64,000 nucleotides of DNA from Candidatus Kapaibacterium sp. (GTDB taxonomy: Bacteria; Bacteroidota; Ignavibacteria; Kapaibacteriales; UBA2268), in contig JAONBD010000002.1 in NCBI GenBank assembly GCA_028376765.1, positions 9,930 through 73,929 of the forward strand, read 5' to 3'. The first letter of the stretch is position 1, and the number at the start of each line of letters is the position of its first letter. The notes under the pieces are model-generated. The model ran no database searches. It saw only the letters and a program-made list of their open reading frames with translations, and had not been told where the DNA came from. The translations under genes and the position numbers were made by a program. Below are positions 8,979 to 52,029 of the stretch, in pieces.

Positions 8979-9595
8979 AGATATTAATAGCATTAGTTTT
9001 AATATTTTGCGGAAATATCTTATCACTTGAAGATGTTGATATTTCAAAAGCAAAACACAGATTAACAATTAGCACTGGATCAGCCTATCACATTTTCCAG
9101 GAGGAATTTTTTAGTACTAATGGAGGTGGACTCTTTGGTCCTGACTTCATTCCAGAATATTCCCCAGGTTCATTATTTGGTATTGAGCTAGGATTAGAGT
9201 TGAGTGATTTTACATTAGCCTTACGTTCTAATTACTCTAGATTTTCTGGTACAATCGAAGGAATAGATTTAAGAAAAGATTCTTATACAATTTCAGGTGG
9301 TGCTTATGTTAAAATTTGGGAGTCTGGAAGAGCTAGATTTTATGCAAATACTTTTGTAAACTATTATATTTTAGATCATAAAAGTGATTTTGAGGGTGTT
9401 ACTTATAGAACACAAAGATATTCCTTATTATCAGCAGGAATTTTTGGTGAATTTTTCTTTAATGAGTATTTTTCTCTAGGCCTTAGCCCAGAAATAGATT
9501 TCTATACAATTTTTTTTGATAATTCAGAGTTAAACAACCCGCCTATATATTTCCGAATTAATGTTAATATCAGTATATATTCCAATGCTTTATAA
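8975..9595 (+). CDS. Hypothetical outer-membrane beta-barrel-like protein
   Basis: Signal peptide and alternating hydrophobic/aromatic beta-strand pattern. ATGA overlap with the upstream SDR gene. No family recognised. Confidence 0.4.
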   Translation: MKILIALVLIFCGNILSLEDVDISKAKHRLTISTGSAYHIFQEEFFSTNGGGLFGPDFIPEYSPGSLFGIELGLELSDFTLALRSNYSRFSGTIEGIDLRKDSYTISGGAYVKIWESGRARFYANTFVNYYILDHKSDFEGVTYRTQRYSLLSAGIFGEFFFNEYFSLGLSPEIDFYTIFFDNSELNNPPIYFRINVNISIYSNAL

Positions 9596-33575: not shown

Positions 33576-36500
33576 TTAATTCGATATTGTTATTATTCTA
33601 TTTTTAGTTAAGTATTTTGTTTGAAAAGTTAAAAAGTAATTGCCATTAGGCAATCCATTCAATTCATAATATAATAAATGTTCTCCTTTATTTACAAACT
33701 TTTTTTCAAAAGTGGAAACAACGGCACCTTTTATATCTGTAAATAACACATTTACATAAGTTTGATTTGGTGTTTCAAAGTCTAAAATCAGTCTGTTCGA
33801 TTTAATATCTACTCTTGCATCTAACCCATCGTCAGCCGCAACAATTGGTCTTAATTTGTAAGCACAGACTCCTTCTAAATCAAGCTTAAACGAACGGTTT
33901 AATGGCAGAAAGCACTCATCTGAGCTTACTTCAAATATTAAATCTGTTTCGTAATAGGTTGCAAGCAAGAAAAGAAACGGAAGTTCAAACTTCACCAATG
34001 TATGTTCAGTAATATCAATATTAATTTGCTCTGGTCTGAATTCAATTTCGTTTTCAGTTTGAAATCCATTCATTTGAATAGTTTCAACAATAGTGTTATT
34101 GTCGTATAAAAACAGTTCAAAGTCATCTTCAATTAAATGCATCAATTTCGAATCTGCCTGCAATTTCATACTAAAATCAACATTTTCATTTACTGAATAA
34201 GGAAATTCAAATTCGAATCCGATTGTTCCTTCATCCTTTATTGTAAATAGAAAATCTGGATCTGGACCATCAATTATTTCTTCATCCAGAGTTATTAATT
34301 TTGAAATTGAAATATTTAATGTTGTATCTAAACCAATTGGCTTTGCTTCAATTTCAAGCTTTATTTCTCTTTCGTCTTGTTTATTAATTAACAAACCAAA
34401 CTCAAAATAATCACTAGTGTTAGCTTTAATAATTTGTGGAAGATTTAAGTTATCAAATGATAGATCATTATTTGAAATAACTTCAATGTTTAAAATTTCA
34501 ATATCAATATTTCCAGTATTATTCAAAACTAGTTCATACGTCTCTTCTATACAAGATTTAATTAATGAGTTACCATTCAGTTCTGCTGATAATTCTGGAA
34601 TTTCTTGATCGAAAACAGTGTAACAAATAAGCGATGATTCAACAATTGTAGGTTCTTGGTTTGGACCAGTATTTGGGTTTTGGTATTCTGTTTCTATATA
34701 AATCTTATAAACATCTTGCACTAATCCCGTTACCAATAAATCAATTTCAATTGATTCCCCTACTTGAAGCTCCTGACCAATGTATTCTGAAACATTTAAT
34801 AATTGGAATCTAGCATCAGGTAAAGAATAAAAGAATGGATTTCCTAAGTTGAGTCTAGAAATTTCTGAAAGCTTAATATCATTAATAGTTACCGGTACAT
34901 CACCAGTGTTTTGTATTATGGTAAAGTTATTGATATACTCTGTATCAGCTATCAAAGTATCATTATTATTACAATTTTGGATTGGAGTAATTTCATTTGT
35001 AATAGCTATACCTTTTGAATGGAAATAGATTTCTGGATGTAAGTCCCAATTCGTATCAAAAAGTGCATCTATTGTAAAAGTTCCTGTAGAATTAGGTTCA
35101 AAGAATACTTCAAACTCAAAATCAGCACCAGGTTCTATATCAACATTAATATTCTCAATAATATTTTCTGAGCTAGTGGAATAACTATTTAATTGAGTAT
35201 AATTGATGAAATTAAGTTCACCCCCAATATTACCATTGTTAGTAAACTTAAATTTTTCGGATTTTATTTCACCTAACCAGTTAGTACCAAAATCATGTTC
35301 GATTGATTCAAATAGAGGAGCAACCCCTCTGCCTAATAATCTATCGCTATCGTTTAGCTCTATTAGATTATTATTAAATGTAGAACTCCCATAAATTGTA
35401 ATATCAAGTGAGTAATCATTTCTCAACTCTGGTAGGAAAGTAGCCGATAAACTTATTTGCTCGCTAGGTGAAATTGATTTTTCACTTAGACCCGTTGTAT
35501 CAATTACAAAAATATTTGATTGATCAAAATCTAATCTTTCTAAATTAACTAGCTCATTACCAGAATTACCAATTAAAATATCACCAATTTTTTCATCGCC
35601 CAAATAAACATCTTTAAAATCGTATCCTGAAATTACTAAAGAAGGATTTTTAATATCATAGTAAAATTGGGTTGTAGATTGAACATCACATTCAAATAAA
35701 GCTGAAATAGTTTTAGAGTTCTCTCCAATTTCATTATCTGAATTTACTTCAATTTGAAACACCAATTCTTCTTTGGGTTTCATTTGGTAGCTTAGTAAAA
35801 TAGGGTTTAAGATAGTGATTTCATTAGGAGTTATAATATCAATTAGCTCAAGCACTCGGTTAGAGTTATTTGTGACAGAAAATGTTGTAGAAATAATTTC
35901 ATTTGGTAAATAATCTCCAATATCATTTTTAGTATCAATGTCAATATTTATTCCTGTATAGCTAAATGAATAAGTAGATGTATTGTTTAAATAGTCAACA
36001 AATGTAGCAGAAAAATAAGCTGAATTTTTCAAATTAGGAACAGATCCTACAAGGTTAGCACCATTAGTTTCAAAGTTAAATTCTTCTTGAAATTCGATAT
36101 TGAAATTTTTACTTTTATCAATAATCATCTCAAAATAGCCTGTGTCAAACTCATGATTATCCGTTATTTGTACTTCAAATTGACCACAATTTTCATTTAC
36201 CGTTAGTTGTGGTGGTATCGAATCCGATTGATTTTGATTCCTAATACTGATTCCAACATTGTGAGCATACGAATCATAAATCCCAATTCCATAATTTAAA
36301 CAAGTAAACTTTCCAGCTTGTGAGCTAATGAAATGAGCACCTGGTTGTACAGGAATATTAGCTAAGTAGTATTTTTTGTTTTCAGATTCAATTTCTGCGA
36401 CGATAGCTAGTTCAATTACATCACTTCTTAATCGCATAAAATCTAGTTCAATATCGTATGCGGCTGCTTCTTCCATTAAAATTGTAATTTGGTGTAATTC

Positions 36501-37694
36501 GTATTGCTGATCTGATTGATAGAAATCTCCACATCTGTTGGCAGAAAATCCATTATAGTTTTCATCGATTGTATATTCAGGAGTTTGGAAGAAAGTACTA
36601 TTAATAAATAAATCTAATGGGTTTAATAGCATCAGTGCCGGATCAAAAAATACTTCGCAAATTTTTTCTGGTATTCTAGCCATGGAATGCATAATCTGAA
36701 CTGGCTCATTTGATTTCCAAACTGCAGGCAGATTATAATAAACTGAAGTACTTTCTAATTCATTAAGCTCTATTAAGTCAATTTCTCCATCACTGGTAGT
36801 AATTGTTACTGAAGTATTATTGTTAGTTGCAAGGATTTTAAAATGGTTATCACCAGCATAATTTAGCGGTACACTTACAAAGTTCTTACCAAAAGAATTT
36901 GCTGGGGTTAACATCTCTACAATGTGATCTTTGGAGTTAGCAGCACCCGATAAATTCTGCGGTACAGATGTTCTCATGTGTCCAGTAACTATTCCAAGTG
37001 GTTTGCTACTTTTGATTGAGGTTCCAGTAAGATCATTATCACCCCTATTTTGCATTATCTCACTTGATCCCAATAAATAAGATTCACCATTATTTAGGGT
37101 TACATTTACTTTTTCACCTTTTAATCCGCTTCTAGTATCTGCACTCAAATCTATTTCAATTTGGTTATTATCCTGAGAAGACATAATTAAAACCTCTCCA
37201 GTACGAGATACATTCCAGTTTTCGGTTAAATCATCTTCAAGGTAGTGATCATTTCCCATTGTGGAAACATAATATTGCTTACCCCATGTGTGAACTGGAT
37301 AAACTGTGTACATATCTGAACTAAGTGATCGTGTGGAATATGCATAAACTGTAACAGGATTATCGGCTACAATTCTATACAACATATTGTTCATAACCGT
37401 TTCAAAATTCCTGTGCTCATAACTGCGAGATACATTTATACTAACACTTGAAAATGCAGGAATAAACTTCCTCTCTTCCGTATTATCTGGATGGATAATC
37501 GTTATGTTTGTGCTTTTCCTAGCTCCAATAAAAATTTGCTGATACAAAGCTGCATTATTGCTCTGTGCAATCTCATTTTTAAGGAAACCTACCATGAAGT
37601 ATCTACCTTCTTGGCTTGAAAAGACTTGATTTTCTTGGGCCTCTATGCTTACAAAAATCATTAGTATTATTAGTATGAGCTTTCTCATTAACAT
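33576..37694 (-). CDS. Giant (1372 aa) secreted protein with an IgGFc-binding-like N-terminal domain, multiple Ig/ASH-like beta-sandwich repeats and a T9SS-type tail
   Basis: Signal peptide. N-terminal pattern GRYFMVGFLKNE...ITIIHPD...RIVADNPVTVYAYS...GKQYYV...DLTGTSIKSSKPLGIVTGH. Repeated F..V.LG......F.I.N.GN units. C-terminus NVLFTDIKGAVV...NGNYFLTF. Confidence 0.55.
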   Translation of the reverse strand: MLMRKLILIILMIFVSIEAQENQVFSSQEGRYFMVGFLKNEIAQSNNAALYQQIFIGARKSTNITIIHPDNTEERKFIPAFSSVSINVSRSYEHRNFETVMNNMLYRIVADNPVTVYAYSTRSLSSDMYTVYPVHTWGKQYYVSTMGNDHYLEDDLTENWNVSRTGEVLIMSSQDNNQIEIDLSADTRSGLKGEKVNVTLNNGESYLLGSSEIMQNRGDNDLTGTSIKSSKPLGIVTGHMRTSVPQNLSGAANSKDHIVEMLTPANSFGKNFVSVPLNYAGDNHFKILATNNNTSVTITTSDGEIDLIELNELESTSVYYNLPAVWKSNEPVQIMHSMARIPEKICEVFFDPALMLLNPLDLFINSTFFQTPEYTIDENYNGFSANRCGDFYQSDQQYELHQITILMEEAAAYDIELDFMRLRSDVIELAIVAEIESENKKYYLANIPVQPGAHFISSQAGKFTCLNYGIGIYDSYAHNVGISIRNQNQSDSIPPQLTVNENCGQFEVQITDNHEFDTGYFEMIIDKSKNFNIEFQEEFNFETNGANLVGSVPNLKNSAYFSATFVDYLNNTSTYSFSYTGINIDIDTKNDIGDYLPNEIISTTFSVTNNSNRVLELIDIITPNEITILNPILLSYQMKPKEELVFQIEVNSDNEIGENSKTISALFECDVQSTTQFYYDIKNPSLVISGYDFKDVYLGDEKIGDILIGNSGNELVNLERLDFDQSNIFVIDTTGLSEKSISPSEQISLSATFLPELRNDYSLDITIYGSSTFNNNLIELNDSDRLLGRGVAPLFESIEHDFGTNWLGEIKSEKFKFTNNGNIGGELNFINYTQLNSYSTSSENIIENINVDIEPGADFEFEVFFEPNSTGTFTIDALFDTNWDLHPEIYFHSKGIAITNEITPIQNCNNNDTLIADTEYINNFTIIQNTGDVPVTINDIKLSEISRLNLGNPFFYSLPDARFQLLNVSEYIGQELQVGESIEIDLLVTGLVQDVYKIYIETEYQNPNTGPNQEPTIVESSLICYTVFDQEIPELSAELNGNSLIKSCIEETYELVLNNTGNIDIEILNIEVISNNDLSFDNLNLPQIIKANTSDYFEFGLLINKQDEREIKLEIEAKPIGLDTTLNISISKLITLDEEIIDGPDPDFLFTIKDEGTIGFEFEFPYSVNENVDFSMKLQADSKLMHLIEDDFELFLYDNNTIVETIQMNGFQTENEIEFRPEQINIDITEHTLVKFELPFLFLLATYYETDLIFEVSSDECFLPLNRSFKLDLEGVCAYKLRPIVAADDGLDARVDIKSNRLILDFETPNQTYVNVLFTDIKGAVVSTFEKKFVNKGEHLLYYELNGLPNGNYFLTFQTKYLTKNRIITISN

Positions 37695-39039: not shown

Positions 39040-40860
39040 ATGCGTAAAAATAAAAACAAACTGTCTATGTTAAAAATATTATCAATTTTCATCTTATTAA
39101 CTTCCCTTGTATTTACTCAGGACAAGAAATACGAATTTGCAAAATCTTATTTAGATAATGGGCAATTTGAAGATGCAGCTAGATTATTTAATGAATTATA
39201 TTTAGAAAACCCAAATGATCAGAAAGTTGTTGAGGGGTTAATATCAAGTTTGTATTCAACTAATAAATATTCAGAACTGCTACCAATATTAGAAAAATAC
39301 TCTCCAACTACAAAAGATCCTGGCATTGAAGCACTACTAGGTGATGTTTATTGGAAAAATTCAAATATAGAAAAAGCAAAATCAACATGGGACAATACAC
39401 TTAAAAAATATAATAAAAGAGTTGATGCCTACAAAGTTGTAGCTTCTGCACAATCAAGGAATAGACTTTTTGATGATGCAATTCAAACATATTTGACAGC
39501 AAGAAAAAATCTAACAGACAAATTAATTTTTTCTGATGAACTTATTAAACTATATATCTCTCTGGGCTACTATGAAGATGGAAGTAAAGAGACAATTAAT
39601 GGTCTTAATATAAATAGATCGGTACCAACAGCACAAGGTCGCTTTTATGCTTTAATGTCTACTGAAGGTGCGACAGAATTCATTGGTACTTTTCTAAAAA
39701 ATCTTGCTGATAACAATAGTAAGAATTTGGTTTTTCAAGATTTACTTGCTTGGTATTTTAATACAACGAAGAATTATACCGACGCATTTGAAGTATATAA
39801 AAGATTAGACCAACTTAGAAATTCTAAAGGCGGTACAATCTTCAAGTTTGCAGAAACATCAAGAAAAGATGCCAATTACAACTCGGCATTGATAGCTTAC
39901 GAATATATTATTGATAATAAATCAAGTTATGATAGATATTTAGCTAAAGCTCTTTTTGGTTACGCAAGAACTTTAGAGGAAGAAATGGATTCCAAGAAAT
40001 TTATTTCTGAAAAAAATATAAATCGCATTATAAAAAGGTACGAAGAAATAATAGATGAGAATCCAAAATCTCCATTAGCAGAAGAAGCTTTTTTCAGAAT
40101 AGGAACAATCTTCAAAGACAATATTAATGACTATGATAAAGCTCTAGAATATTTTAACAAGCTAATTAATATTTTTAAAAATACCGAAAAATCAGCTTAT
40201 GCAATTCTCAACATTGGCGACTTATATTTGTTAAAAGGTGAATTGAAAAATGCAACTGATACTTATTTAAAAGTTTTAAGCAATTATCCATCTGGAATGA
40301 AAAACCCAAGATTTAAAGCCTCTTACAATTTAGCTAGGGCATATTATTATCAAGGAAATTCTGAAAAATCTCTTGAGAACCTACAGCCTCTACTAGCCAT
40401 TCAAAATGAAAATATTGCTAATGATGCCATTCAATTGACTTACTTAATTGCAGAGAACAAGGATTTTACAGAAGCAGCAGATTCCTTAGGTAGAGCTGAC
40501 TTTCTTTCAATAACTGCATTAACAATTAAAGACAGCTTAGATGTAGAAAATGCTTACTACAACATTAATAAAAAGTTCCCAGCAACTCCAGCATCTGAAA
40601 GGGCTTATTTGAACCTTTCTAAATTTTTCATCAAAAATAACCCACAAAAAACAATTAGTATTATTGATGATTTCTTATATTTATTTCCGAGCTCAATTTT
40701 GATTGATGAAATGCTTATTATGAAAGCTAAATCATTTATTGCTTTGGGAGATAAACAGGAAGCACAGGATACATTTAGTAAGATATTAATCGACTACCCC
40801 GATTCTATATACCTACAAGAAGCAAGAGATTCAATAAGGAAACTTAGAGGCGAATTTTAA
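39040..40860 (+). CDS. Tetratricopeptide-repeat protein, secreted or periplasmic
   Basis: Signal peptide and numerous TPR-like A..Y..G......A...F units along its 606 aa. Confidence 0.65.
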   Translation: MRKNKNKLSMLKILSIFILLTSLVFTQDKKYEFAKSYLDNGQFEDAARLFNELYLENPNDQKVVEGLISSLYSTNKYSELLPILEKYSPTTKDPGIEALLGDVYWKNSNIEKAKSTWDNTLKKYNKRVDAYKVVASAQSRNRLFDDAIQTYLTARKNLTDKLIFSDELIKLYISLGYYEDGSKETINGLNINRSVPTAQGRFYALMSTEGATEFIGTFLKNLADNNSKNLVFQDLLAWYFNTTKNYTDAFEVYKRLDQLRNSKGGTIFKFAETSRKDANYNSALIAYEYIIDNKSSYDRYLAKALFGYARTLEEEMDSKKFISEKNINRIIKRYEEIIDENPKSPLAEEAFFRIGTIFKDNINDYDKALEYFNKLINIFKNTEKSAYAILNIGDLYLLKGELKNATDTYLKVLSNYPSGMKNPRFKASYNLARAYYYQGNSEKSLENLQPLLAIQNENIANDAIQLTYLIAENKDFTEAADSLGRADFLSITALTIKDSLDVENAYYNINKKFPATPASERAYLNLSKFFIKNNPQKTISIIDDFLYLFPSSILIDEMLIMKAKSFIALGDKQEAQDTFSKILIDYPDSIYLQEARDSIRKLRGEF

Positions 40861-41093
40861 TCTTACTTTGCGATTTAGTTACATTTCATTAAATATCAAC
40901 GTTATTTTTTCAGCTCAAAACAACCACAAAAAACCTATATTTTCTAAAAATATTATTGTATCGGCAGGTTTTATTAAAAATTAAGTATTTTTACTTAGTT
41001 ATTTTGTGGAAAAATATATTAATTTTACATTGTTGCAAACTGCTTGAATGTCAATACCATAACTCCTACCAACTTAGCAGCACAAAGAAATAA

Positions 41094-41110
41094 TTGGCAT
41101 GATGTTTGCG
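41094..41110 (+). promoter_or_regulatory. Sigma-54 (RpoN) -24/-12 promoter candidate
   Basis: TTGGCATGATGTTTGCG against consensus YTGGCACGrNNNTTGCW. GG is at 41096-97 and GC at 41108-09, giving correct spacing. It lies in a 420-nt intergenic region in the correct orientation, ~170 nt upstream of ATG 41281. Confidence 0.6.
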
Positions 41111-41280
41111 AGAATCTTACTGAAGATTGTAATAAAATTAATTGTGAAATAATTTTCATATTTGCAGATTAAAATCCGTACATTTACGTAGTATTAATAG
41201 GTACTGATGTTTTAATTTTGAATGTGATACTAAATAAGAATAAAAAATTTAATTTAATTTATACTAGGAGATCTCTAATT

Positions 41281-43614
41281 ATGAAGAGTCTTATATTACT
41301 AATAATTGGTTTGCTGCCATCGCTTTTGCTATCGCAGACATTTACCATAACAGGAAATTCATCATCGTTCTATAACTCTGGAACTTTCTGTGTAAGAAAT
41401 GATGAAGGATCCCTCAACACAGATGCCGGTTCAGTTGCTAGAGTTGATAATTCGAATGGGGTAATCCAATTTGAAGGCTTGAATAATAGATTTGCTGATA
41501 CAGGTGCAGGTAATAATTATATTGGAAGCTCAGATGCCAATAGACTAGAAGGGCAATTGGTATACATAAAAGTTGGTGCTAATGGTACTCAAACTGTTCA
41601 AGATGACCTATATCTAACAAATTTGGAAGTTTCAAGTACTACTGGTAATACTGTTCAATATGGTAATGCTGTTTATTTGAGTGGGACTTATTCAATTCCT
41701 GGTACTGCCATAAGAGATTATGCTACCAATTCAAACTCATTTGTATATGATGCAAATGGATCTACTACTCAATCAATTGTTGGTGAACCTTCATATTATG
41801 GGTTGTACTTAACAAACTCTGCTATTAAAAACTTAGCAGCTAATCAATCTGCTACTGCAACTAATGAATTTGGATCGTTAGCATCTGTTACAGGTGGAGC
41901 TACAATTAACGGTTCTTTAGAAGCATCTAATAATTTCTTTTTAGAAAATTCTGGAGCAGAATTTTATGTTCAAAGTATTAGTGCAGATAACGCAACTTTA
42001 CAATTAGGTAATGGTACAGTTTCAATTGATGGTCTTCTTACCGTTGAAGAGAATGGTTCTGGCTCAGCTCAGGTAAATACTGGTTCGGCTGTTGCAACTG
42101 TGAACTCAAATGGTACAGTACTAATCACTTCAGGTACATTTAATGCAATTGATGGAAACCTTACATTAGCAGGCGGAGGTTCTTCATTTACAGTAGAATC
42201 TAACGGAGATATTGTTTTGGGTGATTCTAGAACTTTTACAATTAATGATGGTGGATTTGTAAACGGACAAGCAACTGTTGCTAGTAGAGACAATATGAGT
42301 TTTGCAGATAATTCAGAAGTTGTTTACAACGGTGGTAATGTAGTGATGACAAGTTCAAGCTACGGCTATGGTAATTTAACTGCTAATGGTGCAAGCGGTG
42401 TTGAACTAGCAAACGAAACAATTTATGTAGATAACACTCTTAATGTAAGAACATCAAACTTTGATATTTCAAGTGGTGTTGGAACTTCATCTACACTATA
42501 TATGACTGATGATACTGCTCAACCTACTTACGATGAAGGAATCGAGCTAGTTGGTAGAATGGAAAGAACTGTAACTGGTACTTCTGGTACTTTAACATAC
42601 AACAATGCTGAAACAACTCTCGACTTTGCTAACGGTGGTATTGGAACAAATACTTCAATTGGTTTAGATGTTAGACCTTCCGATAATGATCTTGCAAATA
42701 ATTCTGAGATAACTGATTTTGACCCATCAAGAGATGTTGATAGAAGTATCCAAGCTTACTTTACTGGAACTTCTGCATCGTATAACTTAAACTATGCATA
42801 CCAAGATACAGAAACATCAGCGACTATTGCAAACTATCATAACTCATTGAGATATAGAGAGGTTGATGACAATGGTGCCGGTCAATCTGGTAAAATTTCA
42901 ACTGGTGAGCAATATGTAAGAGAAATTACTGATAATGCTCCTAACTTTAGAAGTATTTATTTAAGAGGAATGAGACAAGATGGTGATGGAACAGCCGTTA
43001 CTGGTGATCTTGCAGAAGTTAGTGATGGTGGTGTCATCTTCTTAAGAGGTGGTCCTGCAATATTTATATCAGTTAATTCTGGTAGATGGTCTAACCCTAA
43101 TACTTGGGATGAGGCAGAACAACCTGGCCCTTCTGATTTAGCAGTAGTAAGACATACAGTCCATGCTGGTTTCACAAGAACTAATCAAGATAATTATACA
43201 GATGATGAAGATGATCACTTAGCTACTTTCCCTGGTGCACCTACAACTGCAACTAAATTAGTTGGTAAAGTAATCATCGACGAAAACTATGGTGGAATTG
43301 CTAATACAAATGAAGCTACATTAATCTTAGGTGGTAATAAAACTTACGCTCTTAACCCTGAAGATGGAAACATGACTGATGAAGGTTGGGGTCAAGGTGT
43401 ATTTGCTAACGCTGGTGGTATAGAAGTTGAGCCTGCTGCTGCAAATGGAACACTTGCAACAACTGAAGCTGCAGTAGATGCTAATGCAGATACTTATAGT
43501 AATGGTCTAGTAATATTTGCAGGTGCTACATTGATGATTGATGGTAATGGTAATGTAACTGATAACCAAGTTAATAACTTAGGTAAGTTATTAGTTGACG
43601 AAGACGGAAACTAA
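41281..43614 (+). CDS. Secreted Gly/Thr/Asn/Ser/Ala-rich protein (777 aa), probable beta-helical surface or fibril protein with no T9SS tail
   Basis: Start taken at ATG 41281 (MKSLILLIIGLLPSLLLSQ signal peptide) with AGGAG 10 nt upstream. Repetitive ..N.G.i.v..g... strand-like pattern. No recognisable enzyme motif. Confidence 0.5.
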   Translation: MKSLILLIIGLLPSLLLSQTFTITGNSSSFYNSGTFCVRNDEGSLNTDAGSVARVDNSNGVIQFEGLNNRFADTGAGNNYIGSSDANRLEGQLVYIKVGANGTQTVQDDLYLTNLEVSSTTGNTVQYGNAVYLSGTYSIPGTAIRDYATNSNSFVYDANGSTTQSIVGEPSYYGLYLTNSAIKNLAANQSATATNEFGSLASVTGGATINGSLEASNNFFLENSGAEFYVQSISADNATLQLGNGTVSIDGLLTVEENGSGSAQVNTGSAVATVNSNGTVLITSGTFNAIDGNLTLAGGGSSFTVESNGDIVLGDSRTFTINDGGFVNGQATVASRDNMSFADNSEVVYNGGNVVMTSSSYGYGNLTANGASGVELANETIYVDNTLNVRTSNFDISSGVGTSSTLYMTDDTAQPTYDEGIELVGRMERTVTGTSGTLTYNNAETTLDFANGGIGTNTSIGLDVRPSDNDLANNSEITDFDPSRDVDRSIQAYFTGTSASYNLNYAYQDTETSATIANYHNSLRYREVDDNGAGQSGKISTGEQYVREITDNAPNFRSIYLRGMRQDGDGTAVTGDLAEVSDGGVIFLRGGPAIFISVNSGRWSNPNTWDEAEQPGPSDLAVVRHTVHAGFTRTNQDNYTDDEDDHLATFPGAPTTATKLVGKVIIDENYGGIANTNEATLILGGNKTYALNPEDGNMTDEGWGQGVFANAGGIEVEPAAANGTLATTEAAVDANADTYSNGLVIFAGATLMIDGNGNVTDNQVNNLGKLLVDEDGN

Positions 43615-43630
43615 TTTTCTAATAAAAATT

Positions 43631-43685
43631 CGCCCCTTATGGGCTTTTCAATTAAGGGGCAGCTTATTTTATGGCTGTCCTTTTT
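43631..43685 (+). terminator. Two overlapping alternative hairpins, the second an intrinsic terminator
   Basis: Hairpin A is GCCCCTTA (43631-38) paired with TAAGGGGC (43652-59). Hairpin B is GGGCAGC (43656-62) paired with GCTGTCC (43673-79), followed by T6. The two share 43656-59. Confidence 0.6.
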
Positions 43686-43755
43686 TGTAAAAAATAAATT
43701 TTGGTCTTATTATTGATATAAACTATTATATTATTCGCTATATTATAAATCATAA

Positions 43756-46164
43756 TTGAAAAAAATAACAACCATATTACTATTACTAATTAGCTGGTCA
43801 TTTGCACAGAACAAGTTTAATGTGAAAGGCACTGGTCAAGTAAATAACTTTGGAAACTCAATTTTCGAAGCTGGAAACACCAAAATTATTGTTGAAGAAA
43901 ATGCCAGAATTAATAATTCAGGCACTATAAAAGTAAATGATAAAAATGATGTGAGTCAGCAAGCAGTAGGAGTTGAATTCTATGGTATAGTTGAAAATGT
44001 AAACGGCTTTATCGATTTAAATTATTATGGTAATTCCATAATAACACAAGAACTATTAAACGGTACAGTAGCTTTCTCATCTCAAATTAATGACCCAAAT
44101 GGAAGACAATTTGTTCCATTAATCCAGTACGATAGTGTGCTTTTTTCTGGCACCAGAAAAACTTTAAGGTTAAACACAGGTTCTACAAGAACCAAACTTG
44201 TTGCCAGAAAAAATTTCACAAGTACTAATAATACATTTGAATATGATAATAATGTAGAAATTGAATCTCATAAACACACTGAACACGATGGAACTTTTGA
44301 AACGAGTTTTGATAGAGTTACATTTATTCAAGGCTCTGATTCATTAGATGCTAGGGTGAATGGTACTGGTAATTTTAAAGTACTAAGAATTGACAACCCT
44401 AACGGTGTTGATATTACTCGTGGTGGATTTGAAGTTCAAAATAGGTTGGAACTTTATCAAGGGAAATTAAATAATAGTGCTTCAGCTAATTTTATTTTAG
44501 CAGATTCTTCTACAATAGAACTACCTGCTAATTTTAATATGATGGACGAATCAGGTATATATAGAGAAGCAGCTTCTTCTCTTAATATCGAACCAGAATT
44601 TGATGGCACAGTACTAGTACAATATCAAGGTAATGCACCAATGGAAAGTGGACCAGAAATCCCAGCAGATAATCAAATACTTACAGATTTAAATATCTTA
44701 AATAATGGCGGGGTTACTTTTACTAAAGATGTTTTTGTTAGAGATAGAATAGAAATTGGTGCCAACGCTTACATGGATTATGCAGGTAATGAAAACACTT
44801 TATATTACCTCTCCCCCGACGATTCTGGAATATTCTTTTCAGATACTACTAAAGAAGTATATGGAAATATGGCTAGAGCTAACGCTAATCTTCCAACTGA
44901 TTCAAGATTAACTTTTAATAACGCATATACATATTTAAGATTTAGTACTGAAGATCAAGATGCAGATCCTGATTTAACAAGTGACGGCGGCTTAGTTGAT
45001 ACTATAATAGTTAGAGTTGAACCAAATACAGCCTATGATGATTTAACCTATGGAAATGATTCAGATCTAAAAGTTCAGAGAAAAATAAAGATTTCTGCTA
45101 AAGATAATAGCGGCACTGAATTAATAGCATTTAATAATGCTTCATTTGGTTATGCTTGGAGACATGATGCAGATAGCCCAAAAGCTAATTATCATGAAAC
45201 TAGGGATGATAATTCTGAGATAATATTTGATGAGCTAGGTCTACAAAGGTTTGATATTCAATCCCAAGTTTGGCTAGACGAACAATCTCAAATTCCTCCA
45301 AATTATGATGATATTAATGATTGGGCTTATAGTAATGCTTCTTTATCAGGATTGCTTGGAGAATTTGCTATTGGTCTTAATATAAAAAAATATTTAGCTT
45401 TTGTTGCGAATGCAATTTTGGAAGGCCCTTATGACTTGGAAAGTGGTCAAATGATTGATAGCCTACAACAACAAGATTTATTCCCTAAGGATCAAAATGG
45501 TAAATATATTCTGCCAAATTCTTATCCTTTCGAAACTGCTTGGATACCTAATGAATTAAGAATAACATTAGATAGTATACCAGAAAATGTAGTAGATTGG
45601 GTTTTAATCGAATTTAGAAAGGGACAAGAAGAATCAACAGAGTCATTTTATAAACCCTGTTTTCTTAGGAAAGATGGTGTTTTGATTGATACTGTTGGTA
45701 ACGAAAATATTATAGTTTGGGAAGAAGAGGTAGGCGGCATTGACGTATCTGGTGAAACAACTTACTATATAGCAATACACCACAGAAACCACATGCCAAT
45801 TGTTACTAATGAAAAATTAAAATTCTCGTCAAATGAAGATAACCCAGAATTAGTTGATTTCACAAACCTCAACAGCATTTATAATTTTGCTTTAAGCCCA
45901 GTTAAATTTCTTGGACTAGATGAAAATAATGAAAGAATCTATGGCTTATATGCAGGTAATACCGAAAGAACAGTTGAGCAAATAGACTTTAGACAAATAA
46001 TTAATCAAGCTGACTTGGATGAGATAAATGACTGGATTAAAAGGGATAACTATTTGCTTTATTTAAGAGCCGACATCAACATGGACGGAATAGTTAACGC
46101 CAAAGATTTTAATGTGTCTTGGAATAATCAGAAAAATAGATACGTAGATAGTTTTGTAAAATGA
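43756..46164 (+). CDS. Secreted 802-aa protein with N-terminal beta-helix-like region and C-terminal dockerin-like calcium loop
   Basis: TTG start and signal peptide MKKITTILLLLISWSFAQ. The central LEGPY....VVDWVLIEFR....HHRNHMPIV module recurs in FCB surface proteins. C-terminal DINMDGIVNAKD matches DxNxDGxxNxxD. Confidence 0.5.
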   Translation: MKKITTILLLLISWSFAQNKFNVKGTGQVNNFGNSIFEAGNTKIIVEENARINNSGTIKVNDKNDVSQQAVGVEFYGIVENVNGFIDLNYYGNSIITQELLNGTVAFSSQINDPNGRQFVPLIQYDSVLFSGTRKTLRLNTGSTRTKLVARKNFTSTNNTFEYDNNVEIESHKHTEHDGTFETSFDRVTFIQGSDSLDARVNGTGNFKVLRIDNPNGVDITRGGFEVQNRLELYQGKLNNSASANFILADSSTIELPANFNMMDESGIYREAASSLNIEPEFDGTVLVQYQGNAPMESGPEIPADNQILTDLNILNNGGVTFTKDVFVRDRIEIGANAYMDYAGNENTLYYLSPDDSGIFFSDTTKEVYGNMARANANLPTDSRLTFNNAYTYLRFSTEDQDADPDLTSDGGLVDTIIVRVEPNTAYDDLTYGNDSDLKVQRKIKISAKDNSGTELIAFNNASFGYAWRHDADSPKANYHETRDDNSEIIFDELGLQRFDIQSQVWLDEQSQIPPNYDDINDWAYSNASLSGLLGEFAIGLNIKKYLAFVANAILEGPYDLESGQMIDSLQQQDLFPKDQNGKYILPNSYPFETAWIPNELRITLDSIPENVVDWVLIEFRKGQEESTESFYKPCFLRKDGVLIDTVGNENIIVWEEEVGGIDVSGETTYYIAIHHRNHMPIVTNEKLKFSSNEDNPELVDFTNLNSIYNFALSPVKFLGLDENNERIYGLYAGNTERTVEQIDFRQIINQADLDEINDWIKRDNYLLYLRADINMDGIVNAKDFNVSWNNQKNRYVDSFVK

Positions 46165-47795
46165 AATATTTAATATTAATAATTATCATAGTTTTATCAT
46201 CATACATCTTTGCACAAGATGAGAAACCTGCTATACTTGAAATTAGAAATACAAATCCAATAGAACCATCTATTTTAGAATTTGATATTTACATGAGAAG
46301 AAATTCTAATTTGTGGCAACGGTTTGCAAATGGGACTTATTATTTCGAATTTAAAAAAAGTTATCCAGAGCAGCCTGATTATATAATCAATCCAGATAAT
46401 TTAAATTTCACTTTTCAAGATGTAACAACAGAACTAGCCTTAAGTACTCAAGGTCAAAATATTGACGGATTATCTGAATATATTGTTAACACGCAAGTAA
46501 TAAATGAAGCACTAGTTGTTTCAATAATCGGACCTGAAGATTATGTAAATGCTCAGGAAGTTCCACTTAACACTTCTGGCGAAGAAGATTTAAAAATTGG
46601 GACATTTAGGGTTCAGGCGGTTGATTCTCGTGCCTCGATCCCAACAAAAATACGTTGGAAAACACCTGCTCCATATTGGCAGACTACAGCATATAAAAAT
46701 GATATTGATAGAGATTATAAAAAAGTACCTGAAAATGAGTACAGCAACCCTCAAGACTTTAATGCTGTTAGAACTTTTTTTATAAGTGATAATATCAATC
46801 TGAATAATCCCAATTCAGAGATAGAGTACTCAGAGGATTTTACTGAGCCAGATGGTATTAAACCGAGGTATGTTGATGCTAAGTACTTTGGTGATGGAAG
46901 GATAACAGTTTCTTGGAAAACAGATAGTGAAATTTTTCCTCACAATTACGTTATCAAAAGAATGAAGAAAAATTTCTACACAACAAGAGAAGAATTTGCA
47001 TCGTTAAGACAATATTTTGAAACAGATTTAGCTCAAGATTATTATGCAATTAACCCAATAACTAGTGGTCCAAACGCTAGACCCGAATATACAAATCAAT
47101 ACAAGGTTGTTGCAACAGGTACATCCTACGATAGAACCGATGCTTTTGATATATTTTTTTGGGATGAGAATACTTTATCTAATGGTAACTTTAATCGTGA
47201 TGATTTATTAAGTGAATCATTAAAAGAACTTCTAACTGGTGTAGGGAACGAGACTCCATACCCCTCACTTGTAAAGAGATTTGATACCCAAAAAGAAACA
47301 AAAGGTGAAGATTATTTCTGGACAGATCCCGAAAAATTTGAAAAAGGTGAATGGGGTTGCTATCACGTTTCTTATCAAGATTGGAATGGATTCGTTTATC
47401 CTCTCGGATATGATTGTGAACAGATACCAAATTCTGTAATTGCTTTTGCAAATGCTTACCCAAATCCATTCGAAACAGAAACTCAAATTGATTTTGAACT
47501 ACTTGATGATGTTAAGAATTTGCAACTTAGAGTGGTTGACGGTCTAGGTAAAGTTGTAACTCATGCAGTTGGCTTAGATGGTGTAATACTTGATAATGTA
47601 TCTGCTCCCGATGTGGCTGATAATAATTCAAAACCATCAAGATATGCTTTAAGAGGCACACATACTGCAAAAATTAATATCCCCAAAAGCTCTTTAGGAC
47701 AAGCTTCCTATTCTTTATTAATTACCGCAGACCCATTAAACGATAATTTTGTTGGTAGTTCTAATGCTCTTGTAAAACTACAAGTAACACGTTAA
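46161..47795 (+). CDS. Secreted 544-aa protein with T9SS C-terminal sorting domain
   Basis: ATGA overlap with the upstream gene and a signal peptide. C-terminus AYPNPFETETQIDFEL...LQLRVVDGLGKVV. The N-terminal ~150 aa form a beta-sandwich-like region (possibly cohesin-like, low confidence). Confidence 0.55.
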   Translation: MKYLILIIIIVLSSYIFAQDEKPAILEIRNTNPIEPSILEFDIYMRRNSNLWQRFANGTYYFEFKKSYPEQPDYIINPDNLNFTFQDVTTELALSTQGQNIDGLSEYIVNTQVINEALVVSIIGPEDYVNAQEVPLNTSGEEDLKIGTFRVQAVDSRASIPTKIRWKTPAPYWQTTAYKNDIDRDYKKVPENEYSNPQDFNAVRTFFISDNINLNNPNSEIEYSEDFTEPDGIKPRYVDAKYFGDGRITVSWKTDSEIFPHNYVIKRMKKNFYTTREEFASLRQYFETDLAQDYYAINPITSGPNARPEYTNQYKVVATGTSYDRTDAFDIFFWDENTLSNGNFNRDDLLSESLKELLTGVGNETPYPSLVKRFDTQKETKGEDYFWTDPEKFEKGEWGCYHVSYQDWNGFVYPLGYDCEQIPNSVIAFANAYPNPFETETQIDFELLDDVKNLQLRVVDGLGKVVTHAVGLDGVILDNVSAPDVADNNSKPSRYALRGTHTAKINIPKSSLGQASYSLLITADPLNDNFVGSSNALVKLQVTR

Positions 47796-47835
47796 TAATT
47801 TTTTTTTTAAGTTACACATCTAATAACCGCCCAAT

Positions 47836-49362
47836 TTGAAATTAAAACTATTAATAATACTCAGCTTTTTAGCTTGTCCAATATTAGGACAGGAGAGTTC
47901 TACATTAACAAATGAAAGTGATGTGAGTAATTCTAATACATTTACTGAAGATGAATTTGAGCCAGCAATGGACTTATATGATGACGGTAAAATGTATGAA
48001 GAAACAATACTTAGCAATAATGACACTTTGCTGGTAACAAGAACCTATGGTGATCACTTTTATGGATTATTTGCTGGGCCTAATCTATCTTTAATTACAG
48101 GAAATGTTAGATGGGCTGCAAACCCATTAGCAATTGCTCCGGGAGACTACCCTGAACCTTCCCGTGGAGATGTAATTGTAGATTACACTCCAATCAGAAT
48201 TAATGAAAATTTCAATTGGTTCCCTGGTTTTATTTATGAATATTCACCTGTAGATTGGGACTTTGGTTTTGCTCTAAGAGTCTTCCCATTCGAGACAGTA
48301 CTTTTAAGAGCAGAGTTTTTAGTTCCTGAAGAAGATGCCACCCGAGAGAATGAAAAATATATATTTACATCTAGGATACCATACACAGGAATATCTCCCC
48401 AATTGACATATAAAATTCGTTATTTAAATTTAAAATTATGGGCTGGAGCAGACGTATTTTTTAGCATTGGTAACGACGAAACTCAAATAGAAAGAGATTA
48501 TATTACAACATCAGGGGATGTTGAAGTTCCTAGGATTATTAGAAACTTAGAAGATCCTCCGTTAAGATATGGTTTTAACACTGGTATTGAATACGAGTTT
48601 TTAGTGATGGACATATTTAAATCCACTAGGGTTAAATTCGCTCCATATTTCATGGCTGAATGGACTACTAGTTATATTAGTGATTTTGGTTCAAGTGTTT
48701 CCCCAATAATTGTTAGGGCTGGCTTAGCAATAAAACTTGGTCCTGATAGGATAAAAACTGAGACATTGAAATATGTTCCAAAAATAAATAACGATTTCCT
48801 AGCTAAATTCGATGAACAAAGAACTGTTAGTTTTGGTGGTTTTATTGAAAATGAAGAATTAGTTTCCTCTTCGCTCGATTATATTGAAGTTGCTCAAGTT
48901 CAAGCAGATATTACAGATGAACCTTCTTCAAAACTAGAAAATACAGATGATTTATTTAAACCCCAAGTTAGCTCAGAACCAGAGGAAGAAGAAGAAGAAA
49001 AAGAAAATAAGTTGTCAAAAGGTCAACAAAAAATATTCACGTTTAAGAACATTAGTTCTACTACCCTATCAAAAGAATTACGAGATTATTTGAAAGGAAT
49101 TGCTACTTGGCTTAAAAACAACCCTAATGTTGAAATTCGAGTAGTTGGTCACGCCTCTGCAGACGAGCCACAGAGGGAAGCACAGCAATTATCTAATAAT
49201 AGAGCATTGAAAGTTCAATCCTATTTACAAAGACAAGGCATACAGAAAAGAAGAGTATTAGTTGGTTTTCAAGGTGCAAGATCGCCAAGACGAGATGTTG
49301 ATAACAGAACAGCAGCTGGTAGAGCCGCAAACAGACGGGTTGAGATAGAATTAGCTAAATAA
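47836..49362 (+). CDS. OmpA family protein with N-terminal beta-barrel, acidic linker and C-terminal OmpA-like peptidoglycan-binding domain
   Basis: TTG start and signal peptide. C-terminus IRVVGHASADEP....LSNNRALKVQSYL....NRRVEIEL. Confidence 0.75.
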   Translation: MKLKLLIILSFLACPILGQESSTLTNESDVSNSNTFTEDEFEPAMDLYDDGKMYEETILSNNDTLLVTRTYGDHFYGLFAGPNLSLITGNVRWAANPLAIAPGDYPEPSRGDVIVDYTPIRINENFNWFPGFIYEYSPVDWDFGFALRVFPFETVLLRAEFLVPEEDATRENEKYIFTSRIPYTGISPQLTYKIRYLNLKLWAGADVFFSIGNDETQIERDYITTSGDVEVPRIIRNLEDPPLRYGFNTGIEYEFLVMDIFKSTRVKFAPYFMAEWTTSYISDFGSSVSPIIVRAGLAIKLGPDRIKTETLKYVPKINNDFLAKFDEQRTVSFGGFIENEELVSSSLDYIEVAQVQADITDEPSSKLENTDDLFKPQVSSEPEEEEEEKENKLSKGQQKIFTFKNISSTTLSKELRDYLKGIATWLKNNPNVEIRVVGHASADEPQREAQQLSNNRALKVQSYLQRQGIQKRRVLVGFQGARSPRRDVDNRTAAGRAANRRVEIELAK

Positions 49363-49447
49363 AATCCTTTCATTAAATATAATATTTTCAGATTAATTTT
49401 TTTTTTTGTTATTTTACGTTGCTTAACAAATAAAAAATATTAAAACT

Positions 49448-49837
49448 ATGTCTGATAAATCAAATCCTATCGCAATAGTTGAAGATAATACTCCAATTAG
49501 AAAATTATTTTCAACATTACTAAAGAAAGCAGGTCACCAAATTATTGAATTTGAAAATGGTGAATCAGCTATGGAAGGTCTGAAAAATACATCCGTTTCC
49601 ACAATTATATTAGACATACTTTTACCAGATAGAAATGGTAGTGATATGATTGGGGAATTAAGAGGAATAAAAGGTTACGATAAAATACCTATTATTGCAA
49701 TTACTGGTTTTGCTCAGGCATCTGACCGTCAAAAATTTATAGATTTGGGTTTCGATGCATATCTTGCTAAACCAATAAACACATCAAGTTTTGTAGAAGA
49801 GATTAATACGATTAGAGATGAAAAATTTAAAAAATAG
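49448..49837 (+). CDS. Single-domain response regulator (CheY-like receiver only)
   Basis: IAIVEDN acidic pocket, phospho-acceptor context ILDILLPDRNG, IIAITG and YLAKP. No output domain. Confidence 0.85.
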   Translation: MSDKSNPIAIVEDNTPIRKLFSTLLKKAGHQIIEFENGESAMEGLKNTSVSTIILDILLPDRNGSDMIGELRGIKGYDKIPIIAITGFAQASDRQKFIDLGFDAYLAKPINTSSFVEEINTIRDEKFKK

Positions 49838-49845
49838 GTAATGGA

Positions 49846-52029
49846 ATGGGATCATACGAAGACGTACTAAAAAGTGCAACCAACCAAAGTTCAAATAAAA
49901 ATATTCTGTTCCAATTTTCAAAAACTTATCCTGCATGGGTAATATTCATTATTACACTTGCACTTAGTTTTGTTTTATGGCAATTTATTGAACAACAAGT
50001 TAATAATGAGAACCAAAATAATTTTGAAAAAGCTAGTTCTTCATTAATGGTTCGATTAGAAGAAAAATACCAATCAGAAATCCAGGTATTAAATTCAATC
50101 AAACCAGTTTTTAAGAGCTTTGTAGTTAGAGATGCATTTGAATTGAATGCAAAATCACCTGTTAATGCAGATACTGTAATTAGAACAATTATGAAGGTAA
50201 CTGAAGTTGATACTAGCTACTATGATGATTTTATTTACAACACTCGTTCGCAGGGTTATTATGATTTGAAAATTCACCCTGAACAAAAACGAGATATTTA
50301 CAATATAGTAGAATATGTTGTACCATTTGAAGTAAATCAAGACAGATCTGGATATGACTTTAGCTCAGAGCCAGAAATCGCAAAATTATTTAGAATGTCA
50401 GCAAAAGATGATGAAATTCTGATGTCTCCAATCTATGATGTTAGACCTGATACTTTAGGCTTCTACATGCTTGCTCCAGTTTACAGAGCTTACCAAGAGC
50501 CTGAAAATGAAAGTGAAAGAATGGAACATTTTGAAGGAGCTTTATTATTAGAAATAAAAGTTCCAAGTTTCTTTCAAGCAGCAATTGGAGAAGGTATTGC
50601 CTCAGATTCAACAATTATATATGATATTATAGATAATAATTCACCTCGGAGTGATAAATCTTTTTACCAATCTAACAATTATTTCCTTTTAACTGATGAG
50701 TTCATCCCATTATTAAGGGATAATAAGACCTTAGAGATCGGCGGTAAAAATATCGATGTGATGTTTTACACAGTACCAGAATTTGGAGGTTTCCAAAATA
50801 ACTTACCAATAATTTCATTAATAATTGGAATTGTTGTTTCGTTTGTACTATTTGGATTCATTATATCAGTTATTACCAGTAGACAAAGAGCATTGGAATT
50901 AGCTGAACAAATGACTAAATCCCAAAGACGTATCGTTGAGTCGTCTCAAGATATTATTGCAGTTTTAGATTTCAATGGAATTTGGAAAACAATGAACCCC
51001 GCAAGTGAGGAGATTTTCAACCAAGGGACAGATGAATTAATTGGTTCATCCATCGATGAATTATTCCAAGATAAAAAAGATACTCATATATTTTACAAAA
51101 TCATTGAAAGCGGTTTAGATGATTATACTGAAAGAGTAGATTTAAAAATGCTTGCCCGTGGAAACAAGAAAAAGTGGTTGAATTGGAGTTTCACAGTATC
51201 TCACCAAGATTCTTTAGTTTATGCAATTGGTAGAGATGTTACTCTCCAAAAAGAAGCTGAGGCTCAACAAAGAATTAGAAACAAACAAGTTGAATTAGCT
51301 GAAAGATTTTCTAGAGAGGCAAGTGAATCTAAAACTTACTTTATGACAACACTTTCTCATCAATTAAGAAACTCGCTAACTGGTATTTTAGGTTATTTAC
51401 AAATGGCTAAGGAAGGATTCTATGAGAATACGGAAGAGTTGAATTCATTCTTAGAATTAGCTGAACAATCTAGTGAAGAGATATTTACTTTTGTTGCAGA
51501 TTATGTTGACATGACAATTGCTACAGATTCTAATACCAAAAATATTGATTTCTCTACTGTGAAAATTAAAGAGAATTATGAAAATGTTCTTTATAAACTA
51601 GGGCTAGAAGACAAGCCTCTTAACATAAAAACAGAATTCATTGAAGAAACTCCTAATTCTAAATTCTTAGGAGATAAAAATATAATGAGTGAAACTTTAA
51701 TGATAATTTTAAAAACATTGGCAGAAGGCAATGCTATGACCAATGTTACAATCCAAGCAACTGAAAACAGCTATGAAAAAGCTACTGAATTGCAAATACT
51801 TGGATCTGAAAATTCTATTGTTGAAGAAATGATCAAAATTTACAAACAAGAAAAAAGAGATATAGTTGATGCTCTCGAAAAAGATAAAAAAGATGTTTTA
51901 TTGAGTTTGGCAACTATTGAATCGAACATTAGAAGACTAAATGGATCTATCCAATTTGAAACATTTGGAGGCGAAGAAGGTAATGTAGTAATGATTACCT
52001 TACCTCTAACTGCAACAACAGCTAGATAA
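49846..52029 (+). CDS. Membrane sensor with CHASE, PAS and HisKA domains and a catalytic-domain-like C-terminus whose ATP-binding motifs appear degenerate
   Basis: Two TM segments flank a CHASE-like region (...MSPIYDVRPDTLGFYMLAPVYRAY). A PAS-like segment follows, then the H-box TLSHQLRNSLTGILGY (His codon 51358-60). I could not find N, G1 (DxGxG) or G2 (GxGLGL) boxes. Confidence 0.7.
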   Translation: MGSYEDVLKSATNQSSNKNILFQFSKTYPAWVIFIITLALSFVLWQFIEQQVNNENQNNFEKASSSLMVRLEEKYQSEIQVLNSIKPVFKSFVVRDAFELNAKSPVNADTVIRTIMKVTEVDTSYYDDFIYNTRSQGYYDLKIHPEQKRDIYNIVEYVVPFEVNQDRSGYDFSSEPEIAKLFRMSAKDDEILMSPIYDVRPDTLGFYMLAPVYRAYQEPENESERMEHFEGALLLEIKVPSFFQAAIGEGIASDSTIIYDIIDNNSPRSDKSFYQSNNYFLLTDEFIPLLRDNKTLEIGGKNIDVMFYTVPEFGGFQNNLPIISLIIGIVVSFVLFGFIISVITSRQRALELAEQMTKSQRRIVESSQDIIAVLDFNGIWKTMNPASEEIFNQGTDELIGSSIDELFQDKKDTHIFYKIIESGLDDYTERVDLKMLARGNKKKWLNWSFTVSHQDSLVYAIGRDVTLQKEAEAQQRIRNKQVELAERFSREASESKTYFMTTLSHQLRNSLTGILGYLQMAKEGFYENTEELNSFLELAEQSSEEIFTFVADYVDMTIATDSNTKNIDFSTVKIKENYENVLYKLGLEDKPLNIKTEFIEETPNSKFLGDKNIMSETLMIILKTLAEGNAMTNVTIQATENSYEKATELQILGSENSIVEEMIKIYKQEKRDIVDALEKDKKDVLLSLATIESNIRRLNGSIQFETFGGEEGNVVMITLPLTATTAR

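Follow-up and report, generated by a model that had tools for sequence, protein, structure and literature searches.

In a 64,000-nt window of DNA from Candidatus Kapaibacterium sp. (JAONBD010000002.1), whose numbering is used for all positions here, we examined four consecutive genes (g1 to g4) that an initial annotation had proposed as a secreted cell-surface module. These genes are part of a vertically inherited, lineage-specific cell-envelope cluster that is present in Kapaibacteria and in allied metagenome-assembled genomes (MAGs) labeled Ignavibacteria, Chlorobiota, and Bacteroidota. The proteins g1 and g2 constitute two new protein families, and the remaining parts of the cluster are ordinary. 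The conservation of the cluster and the natural fusions of g1 with g2 are solid, and the function is inferred: we give a probability of about 40% to a beta-helix surface complex of g1 and g2 that is held by g3, anchored by way of type IX secretion (T9SS), with g4 as a brace and a receiver and sensor in control. The features are as follows.

40861-41280, + strand: intergenic region upstream of g1, 420 nt, AT-rich and unusually long; presumed promoter and 5' leader
41281-43614, + strand: g1, exported protein of 777 aa, Gly/Thr/Asn-rich, Lys-poor, predicted to be all-beta
43081-43131, + strand: g1 motif G-R-W-S-N-P-x-T-W-D-E-x-x-x-P-G-P, residues 601 to 617, the most conserved stretch of the family
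43654-43689, + strand: intrinsic-terminator-like hairpin, 11-bp stem (43654-43683), 8-nt loop, then a T-run
43756-46164, + strand: g2, exported protein of 802 aa, TTG start, paralogue of g1 whose C-terminal module is of another kind
45403-46161, + strand: g2 C-terminal module, residues about 550 to 802, predicted beta-sandwich followed by a dockerin-like calcium loop (46072-46107)
46161-47795, + strand: g3, exported protein of 544 aa, 4-nt overlap with g2
47442-47792, + strand: T9SS type-A-like C-terminal domain of g3, residues about 428 to 544, with a clade-specific insertion
47836-49362, + strand: g4, OmpA-family outer membrane protein of 508 aa
49448-49837, + strand: stand-alone CheY-like receiver, 129 aa (Response_reg, E = 4e-23)
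49846-52029, + strand: CHASE-PAS-HisKA sensor (Pfam domains) with a degenerate ATP-binding domain

The four open reading frames (ORFs) are all present on the + strand where the initial annotation had placed them, and its descriptive claims agreed with our results: putative signal peptides on all four products, a Gly/Thr/Asn-rich g1, a terminator-like structure after it, a resemblance between g1 and g2 (which extends beyond the N terminus), a dockerin-like end of g2, a T9SS tail on g3, and a barrel with an OmpA_C domain in g4. Pfam and NCBIfam scans likewise agreed that none of the proteins belongs to a known pilin, usher, two-partner secretion (TPS), or autotransporter family. Among the four, only g3 (as a T9SS cargo by tail homology) and g4 (OmpA family) appear to fit known families.

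We scanned one genome per GTDB species with two peptide patterns from g2, which gave 50 loci, and searched all loci with the window proteins by tblastn, counting for each gene only those contigs that left room for it. g3 followed g2 in all 44 loci with room, g4 was present in 36 of 37, the receiver followed g4 in 31 of 37, the sensor was found in 28 of 32, and a separate g1 lay upstream in 27 of 35. Word-indexed protein searches were nearly blind to these families (4 relatives for g1 and 7 to 10 for g2), and it was an exhaustive HMMER search together with the genome scan that revealed them. Every contig with a relative from the word-indexed searches had the order g1-g2-g3-OmpA-receiver-CHASE sensor. 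Nearly all 50 loci came from MAGs labeled Kapaibacteria/Kapabacteria, Ignavibacteria, Chlorobiota, or "Bacteroidetes," a few of them evidently mislabeled. The gene upstream of g1 varied among genomes, the TPR protein in that place in the window (39040-40860) showed no conservation alongside the cluster at any of the related loci, and synteny past the sensor was kept only in the closest relatives. Because the order from g1 to the sensor is conserved while the flanks vary, the unit comprises six genes and not four. Thus, the proposed module stands as a conserved, co-inherited set of exported envelope proteins, with the g1-g2-g3-g4 order recurring in about 50 species-level genomes, but not as a unit of four, as the receiver and the CHASE sensor travel with it. 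In the literature on Kapaibacteria with T9SS or surface structures, we found nothing on this cluster.

The spacing of the genes differed along the cluster. The median distance between g2 and g3 was 1 nt, with 34 of 51 pairs within 20 nt of each other and often a 4-nt overlap; the corresponding medians were 15 nt for the receiver and the sensor and 104 nt for g1 and g2. A fifth gene lay between g3 and g4 in about half of the loci, encoding a beta-propeller of ∼630 aa with WD40-like Pfam matches and a T9SS-type tail (L003 [7351-9237], L011 to L017, L021, L022, L024, L027, L028, L030, L032, L033, L037, L039, L052, and L054). Por_Secre_tail is on record for the L003 beta-propeller, and the clade of the window is without this gene. 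One locus differed in another respect: in L009 (7590-12370; Kapaibacteriales MAG Co_bin_515_strict), the g1 and g2 homologues each had one in-frame stop and neither receiver nor sensor followed g4. This locus could be a decaying copy or reflect assembly errors.

The two new families are distant paralogues of each other. Residues 340 to 522 of g1 aligned with residues 281 to 482 of g2 (hhalign 94.8%, E = 5e-8), and the mature N termini had in common a Q-x-F...G-x-x-x-N-x-G rung pattern. Further, the two genes were fused in at least eight proteins of 1,416 to 1,581 aa (P0074, P0076, P0097, P0099, P0109, P0123, P0161, and P0162; g2 of the window is P0006 in the public protein collection), in which the N-terminal half matched g1 and the C-terminal half matched g2. 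The junction was seamless, running from the conserved C-terminal rungs of g1 (...N-x-G-x-I-x-N-x-G...) into I-x-N-x-G-x-I...Q-D-S-I-x-G of g2. It contained no signal peptide, as that of g2 was gone together with ∼30 further residues. We read two of the fusion loci, both at 49% GC (L057, 6936-11321; L058, 5803-10053). In each, an overlapping g3 homologue lay directly 3' of the fusion gene, and g4 and the CHASE sensor were not nearby; an unrelated receiver was found ∼3 kb on, and the downstream genes on the other strand were unrelated. Since the fusion contigs keep g3 but not g4 or the sensor, the invariant core of the cluster is (g1)g2 plus g3. Another clade (L043 to L050) had a lone g2-type gene with a g1-like N-terminal part.

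By its sequence, g1 founds a family for which neither Pfam nor PDB offers a relative. Clustered at 50% identity, the matches to a four-sequence HMMER profile amounted to 226 representatives, of which 145 had E ≤ 1e-30, and nearly all were 700 to 870 aa long. Pfam had no match in 54 g1 homologues or in ten longer members, and a PDB profile search with g1 returned no relative. The protein was rich in Gly, Thr, and Asn (12.0, 10.7, and 10.6%, versus 6.2, 5.4, and 7.7% for the remaining window ORFs) and poor in Lys (1.0% versus 6.4%), with a single Cys. Within the conserved motif at 43081-43131, residues G601, R602, W603, T608, W609, and P615 were invariant in the 54 sequences, and the motif was absent from g2-type proteins. 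Its GRWSNPxTW part presumably resembles the start of G8/PATR-type beta-helix domains, which we take as a lead only; no model matched it. The AlphaFold2 model of g1, built from 54 sequences, was confident and consisted almost wholly of short strands (mean predicted local distance difference test [pLDDT] score, 86; predicted TM-score [pTM], 0.84). Its pLDDT was above 90 over most of residues 130 to 450 and less certain over the last 170 residues, with an inserted beta-rich segment at about residues 440 to 570. Foldseek found no match to the model at E ≤ 1e-3 in PDB or BFVD; the top weak neighbors were strikingly uniform, nearly all being right-handed beta-helix adhesins (Ag43, EspC, Hbp, IcsA, TibA, and pertactin), phage tailspikes, or pectate-lyase-fold fibers. 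The model looks solenoid-like, and we read g1 as a predicted member of the right-handed beta-helix class without a specific relative.

Pfam and NCBIfam scans of g1 to g4, of the 54 g1 homologues, and of 43 g2 homologues matched no pilus model (pilin, usher, or chaperone), no TPS or autotransporter model, and no beta-helix, G8, or glycoside hydrolase model, and a PDB profile search with g2 returned nothing. What distinguishes g2 is its C-terminal module, whose conserved columns in 43 orthologues were E-G-P-Y, V-D-W-V-x-x-E-F-R, R-x-D-G, and H-R-N-H. The loop D-x-N-x-D-G-x-V-x-x-x-D (D773 to D784 in the window protein), continuing as x-N-x-S-W-N-N, was near-invariant and followed by predicted short helices, in a region where the model pLDDT was below 50. 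The module also ends three unrelated secreted proteins with LVIVD/MopE or PKD/Big_9 domains (P0010, P0011, and P0163), in which the calcium loop is visibly duplicated. In L059 (4973-8063), the gene that begins 4 nt after P0010 (LVIVD/MopE) encodes a protein of 358 aa, in which Por_Secre_tail was above threshold. In comparison with g3, this protein matched the fibronectin type III (Fn3)-like sandwich plus tail (hhalign 92%, E = 5e-7) and left the N-domain unmatched, and its neighborhood was unrelated to the cluster and adjoined a Wzy_C gene. The pairing of P0010 with a T9SS-tail gene seems to parallel that of g2 with g3, and as a single extra example it is only suggestive.

In an alignment of 39 g3 orthologues, four parts could be told apart. 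The signal peptide came first, followed by an N-domain specific to the family (...R-x-S-x-x-W-x-x-F-A-N-G-T-F...Y-Y-Q-A-x-A-Y-K), then by the Fn3-like sandwich, and last by the tail at the C terminus (P-N-P-F...T-x-I-x-Y-x-L-D-D-D-V-x-L-T-x-x-V-Y-D-x-x-G-K). The window protein scored 17.8 bits against Por_Secre_tail, below the cutoff of 27, and 10 of the 39 orthologues had weak matches (best E = 3e-5). The low score is partly due to clade insertions: g3 of the window and of its relatives L001 and L006 had ∼100 extra residues, compared with all other orthologues, in three insertions at about residues 300 to 320, 400 to 490, and, inside the tail, about 470 to 490. A profile of the g3 tail nevertheless matched a profile of T9SS-type tails, made from the neighboring beta-propeller gene tails and one window protein (hhalign 97%, E = 8e-11). 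By this homology, g3 would be a T9SS-type cargo, and its C-terminal domain should lead to export and to attachment at the external face of the outer membrane. A PDB profile search with g3 found nothing. A cohesin identity for the N-domain was considered and was unsupported by Pfam at E up to 5.

The signal peptides of g1 to g4, as read from their sequence pattern, had a Lys-containing n-region and a 12- to 15-residue hydrophobic core, followed by Gln. This Gln was invariant or nearly so in the orthologue alignments of g1, g2, and g3 and only the consensus in g4. The putative g3 signal peptide, for example, was MKYLILIIIIVLSSYIFA followed by QDEK, with the Gln conserved across 39 orthologues. 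A "Q-rule" has been described for the substrates of Bacteroidetes signal peptidase I (PMC5837995, PMC10653852), and this Kapaibacteria-type lineage appears to follow it as well. No Cys was conserved after the signal peptides in the alignments of g1 to g4, the conserved residue there being Gln, and therefore none of the four is expected to be a lipoprotein. The proteins g1 and g2 and their homologues (54 for g1 and 43 for g2) had no match to Por_Secre_tail, CHU_C, TIGR04183, or TIGR04131. As g1 and g2 lack a known signal for crossing the outer membrane, three possibilities follow: g3 is their carrier or dock, the g2 module is itself an unrecognized signal, or both proteins stay in the periplasm.

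The g4 protein consists of a predicted N-terminal beta-barrel (about residues 60 to 300), an acidic variable linker, and OmpA_C at residues 407 to 500 (nt 49054-49335). OmpA_C (PF00691) was above the cutoff in the window protein (E = 2e-16) and present in 33 of 33 orthologues. OMP_b-brl_2 was found in the N-terminal part of 13 of the 33 (best E = 5e-7), and not in g4 of the window. PDB profile matches were confined to the OmpA_C part and were to OmpA_C/Pal/MotB-type peptidoglycan-binding domains, down to E = 2e-27. This points to an OmpA-type membrane-to-peptidoglycan tether architecture and not to an usher or other large translocon. The sensor of the window keeps the HisKA His in LSHQLRNSL. 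Pfam found no HATPase_c in it, and its N, G1 (DxGxG), and G2 (GxGxG) motifs were absent; among 22 orthologues, these boxes were missing save for a lone GDGEG in one. Since the boxes of the ATP-binding domain are lacking, the sensor is unlikely to act as a conventional autokinase, and it looks like a conserved pseudo-kinase, phosphatase, or phosphotransfer protein.

The hairpin between g1 and g2 lies in an 89-nt stretch with a fold of −24.3 kcal/mol (z = −3.8 versus shuffles), and a consensus terminator scanner did not pick it up. The same hairpin was found in the two closest relatives, L001 and L006, and unrelated strong hairpins with T-runs occurred in five more loci. The terminator-like structure after g1 claimed in the initial annotation is thus real in the window and in several relatives, but none was detected in most other loci.

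The working model that we favor brings these parts together. In it, g1 and g2 would form one elongated rod, with the C terminus of g1 joined to the N terminus of g2 as in the fusions. Translation of g3 would be coupled to that of g2, and the T9SS would export g3 and attach it at the cell surface. There, it would serve the rod as a receptor or carrier, keeping hold of the g2 end and possibly also bringing that end out. The g2 C-terminal module would bind g3, possibly in a calcium-dependent manner, and g4 would be an accessory envelope brace from the outer membrane to the peptidoglycan rather than a secretion pore. The hairpin and the gap after g1 would lead to g1 being made in excess over g2, g3, and g4, and the CheY-like receiver and the CHASE sensor would probably control the system. 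A rod presented in this way may have an adhesive role.

It is important to note the results that weigh against this working model. The proteins g1 and g2 have no recognizable T9SS tail, lipobox, autotransporter part, or TPS part, and nothing that we found supports their leaving the periplasm. We also know of no described case of T9SS cargo "hitch-hiking." The structural matches of g1 were nonsignificant (best E, 0.03; TM-score below 0.3). The AlphaFold2 model of g2, built from 15 sequences, was poor (pLDDT, 62), and Foldseek of this model against PDB gave no match at E ≤ 1e-3 and none that was trustworthy. The dockerin signal was weak, with Dockerin_1 in 3 of 43 orthologues (best E = 6.5e-4) and sub-threshold in the window protein, and no cohesin domain was detected in the g3 N-domains at the Pfam limit given above or in the PDB profile search. 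A terminator-like hairpin was present in only about 8 of 37 loci, with none detected in most others. Expression, proteomic, and imaging data for this uncultured lineage were sought and none were found; to our knowledge, the lineage has no cultured member.

The main rival is that g1 and g2 stay in the periplasm. They would then form a beta-helix strut that works with g4 and the peptidoglycan in envelope integrity and not in adhesion, and only g3 would be surface exposed. The Sec signal peptides of g1 and g2, unaccompanied by any known outer-membrane-crossing signal, fit such a scaffold, as do the retention of the peptidoglycan-binding, OmpA-family g4 in 36 of 37 loci and the adjacent membrane sensor and receiver. 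However, the tightest linkage in the cluster is between g2 and g3 and not between g2 and g4; g4 is missing beside the fusion genes; g3 bears a T9SS export tail; and the g2 module also ends proteins with adhesin-type PKD, Big_9, and LVIVD domains. On balance, we consider a periplasmic scaffold somewhat unlikely. If g1 and g2 do stay periplasmic, the cluster would be a lineage-specific envelope brace.

A second possibility takes the g2 module, with its HRNH beta-sandwich and dockerin-like loops, to be an unrecognized sorting or attachment signal through which tail-less proteins would reach or stay on the cell surface by pairing with a small co-translated T9SS cargo of the g3 type, with g1 and g2 stacking end to end into a beta-helical fiber. 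We regard this as unlikely. If it were true, the occurrence of the module on unrelated adhesin-like proteins, one of which has a T9SS-tail gene just downstream, would point to a general two-partner docking or "hitch-hiking" route in bacteria of the Fibrobacteres-Chlorobi-Bacteroidetes (FCB) group.

It is quite improbable that g1 and g2 are glycan-active enzymes, that is, pectate-lyase-fold lyases, hydrolases, or epimerases that act on capsule, extracellular polymeric substances, or another polymer, with g3 as their surface binding partner. The weak Foldseek neighbors do include pectate-lyase-fold tailspikes and phage depolymerase-like proteins, and g1 has invariant (N338, N442, and R488) and nearly invariant (E422, D485, and D610) polar residues. 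Yet the 54 g1 and 43 g2 homologues had no Pfam match to a glycoside hydrolase, lyase, or Beta_helix family, no glycosyltransferase, export, or SusC/D-type genes were conserved nearby, and no structural match was significant.

The gene order, in which a terminator-like hairpin comes after a first gene that looks abundant, and the export of all four products had suggested a chaperone-usher-like pilus. In such a pilus, g1 would supply the major subunit, g2 and g3 the minor ones, and g4 the platform for assembly in the outer membrane. This analogy of the initial annotation fails and such a pilus is highly improbable, given that Pfam and NCBIfam found no PapD-like chaperone, usher, or pilin domain, that the predicted g4 barrel matches, in orthologues, small OmpA/OmpX-type barrels joined to a peptidoglycan-binding domain and is dispensable in the genomes with g1-g2 fusions, and that g1 and g2, at 777 to 802 aa, are far above pilin size and can be fused into a chain of ∼1,450 aa.

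We compared the cluster with known surface systems. In working logic, the closest match would be T9SS-linked surface adhesins with accessory partners, such as type A cargo attached through the PorU/PorV/PorQ/PorZ complex, or SprB with SprF. Like such cargo, g3 appears to have a Sec signal, the following Gln, and a tail homologous to type A; large adhesin-like proteins are encoded beside small partner genes; and other T9SS-tail genes occur in the window and in related clusters. In contrast to these systems, the two large proteins (g1 and g2) lack a tail of either type, A or B, and only the small partner g3 has one, and the cluster encodes no PorP/SprF-like barrel. In predicted fold class, the closest match would be the self-associating autotransporter passengers. 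The passengers of Ag43, TibA, and AIDA-I, along with pertactin, form long right-handed beta-helices with much Gly, Thr, and Asn and little Cys, a description that g1 seems to share by its model and composition; g1 differs in having no beta-domain, no sequence similarity to them, the insert at residues 440 to 570, and the GRWSNPxTWDE motif. The g2-g3 pair may be nearest to cohesin-dockerin docking, to which it is likened by the DxNxDGxVxxxD loop with short helices and by a tightly coupled, predicted surface-anchored partner; it differs in that no cohesin was detected in g3 and no enzymes are attached. With pap and fim operons, the cluster shares a promoter-proximal, probably abundant structural gene, an attenuating hairpin, exported proteins, and an outer membrane protein, but it lacks a chaperone, an usher, the Ig-like fold of pilins, and any donor-strand logic, and its outer membrane protein is an OmpA-type peptidoglycan anchor.

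Three systems were considered and rejected. For chaperone-usher pili, Usher (PF00577) had no match in g1 to g4 or their neighbors, and the g4 orthologues matched only OMP_b-brl_2 and OmpA. For type V (FimA/Mfa) pili, there was no lipobox Cys, with Gln in its place, and no pilin Pfam match. For type V secretion, no autotransporter barrel, TPS domain, or POTRA-containing TpsB was matched in g1 to g4 or in the 54 g1 and 43 g2 homologues.

The g1 and g2 families, which are fixed in a conserved neighborhood across an uncultured class of Bacteroidota-related bacteria, had no Pfam model, solved relative, or annotation, and the present analysis offers a name and a genomic context under which they can be annotated. 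For T9SS research, the cluster raises a concrete question: two large, exported, beta-rich proteins without a sorting tail invariably come with the gene of a small partner that has such a tail and is coupled to them in translation. Should g3 dock or carry g1 and g2, the Bacteroidota cell surface would be populated by a route that is new.

Several minor features of the region bear mention. The 420-nt stretch upstream of g1 may hold the cluster promoter and regulatory sites. An AGGAG at 41267-41271 lies 9 nt before the g1 ATG at 41281, and a longer g1 from a TTG start at 41218 is unlikely. An Rfam scan of 40700-49600 found no RNA element, a 92-aa antisense ORF at 47191-47469 was treated as spurious, and no paralogues of g1 to g4 were found elsewhere in the window. 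No T9SS machinery genes (SprA/Sov, PorK/L/M/N, or PorU/V) were identified within the 64-kb window. Four other ORFs of the window, all on the − strand, are of note. Two of them, at 5090-8047 (985 aa) and 20417-22138 (573 aa), had no Pfam family at E ≤ 1e-3 and may be further lineage-specific proteins. The ORF at 33576-37694 encodes an exported-looking protein of 1,372 aa with IgGFc_binding and Ig-like domains. The ORF at 15463-20358 encodes an exported-looking protein of 1,631 aa with FlgD_ig above threshold and, at its C terminus, Por_Secre_tail just below threshold and a sub-threshold CHU_C; judging from these matches, it is probably a T9SS cargo.

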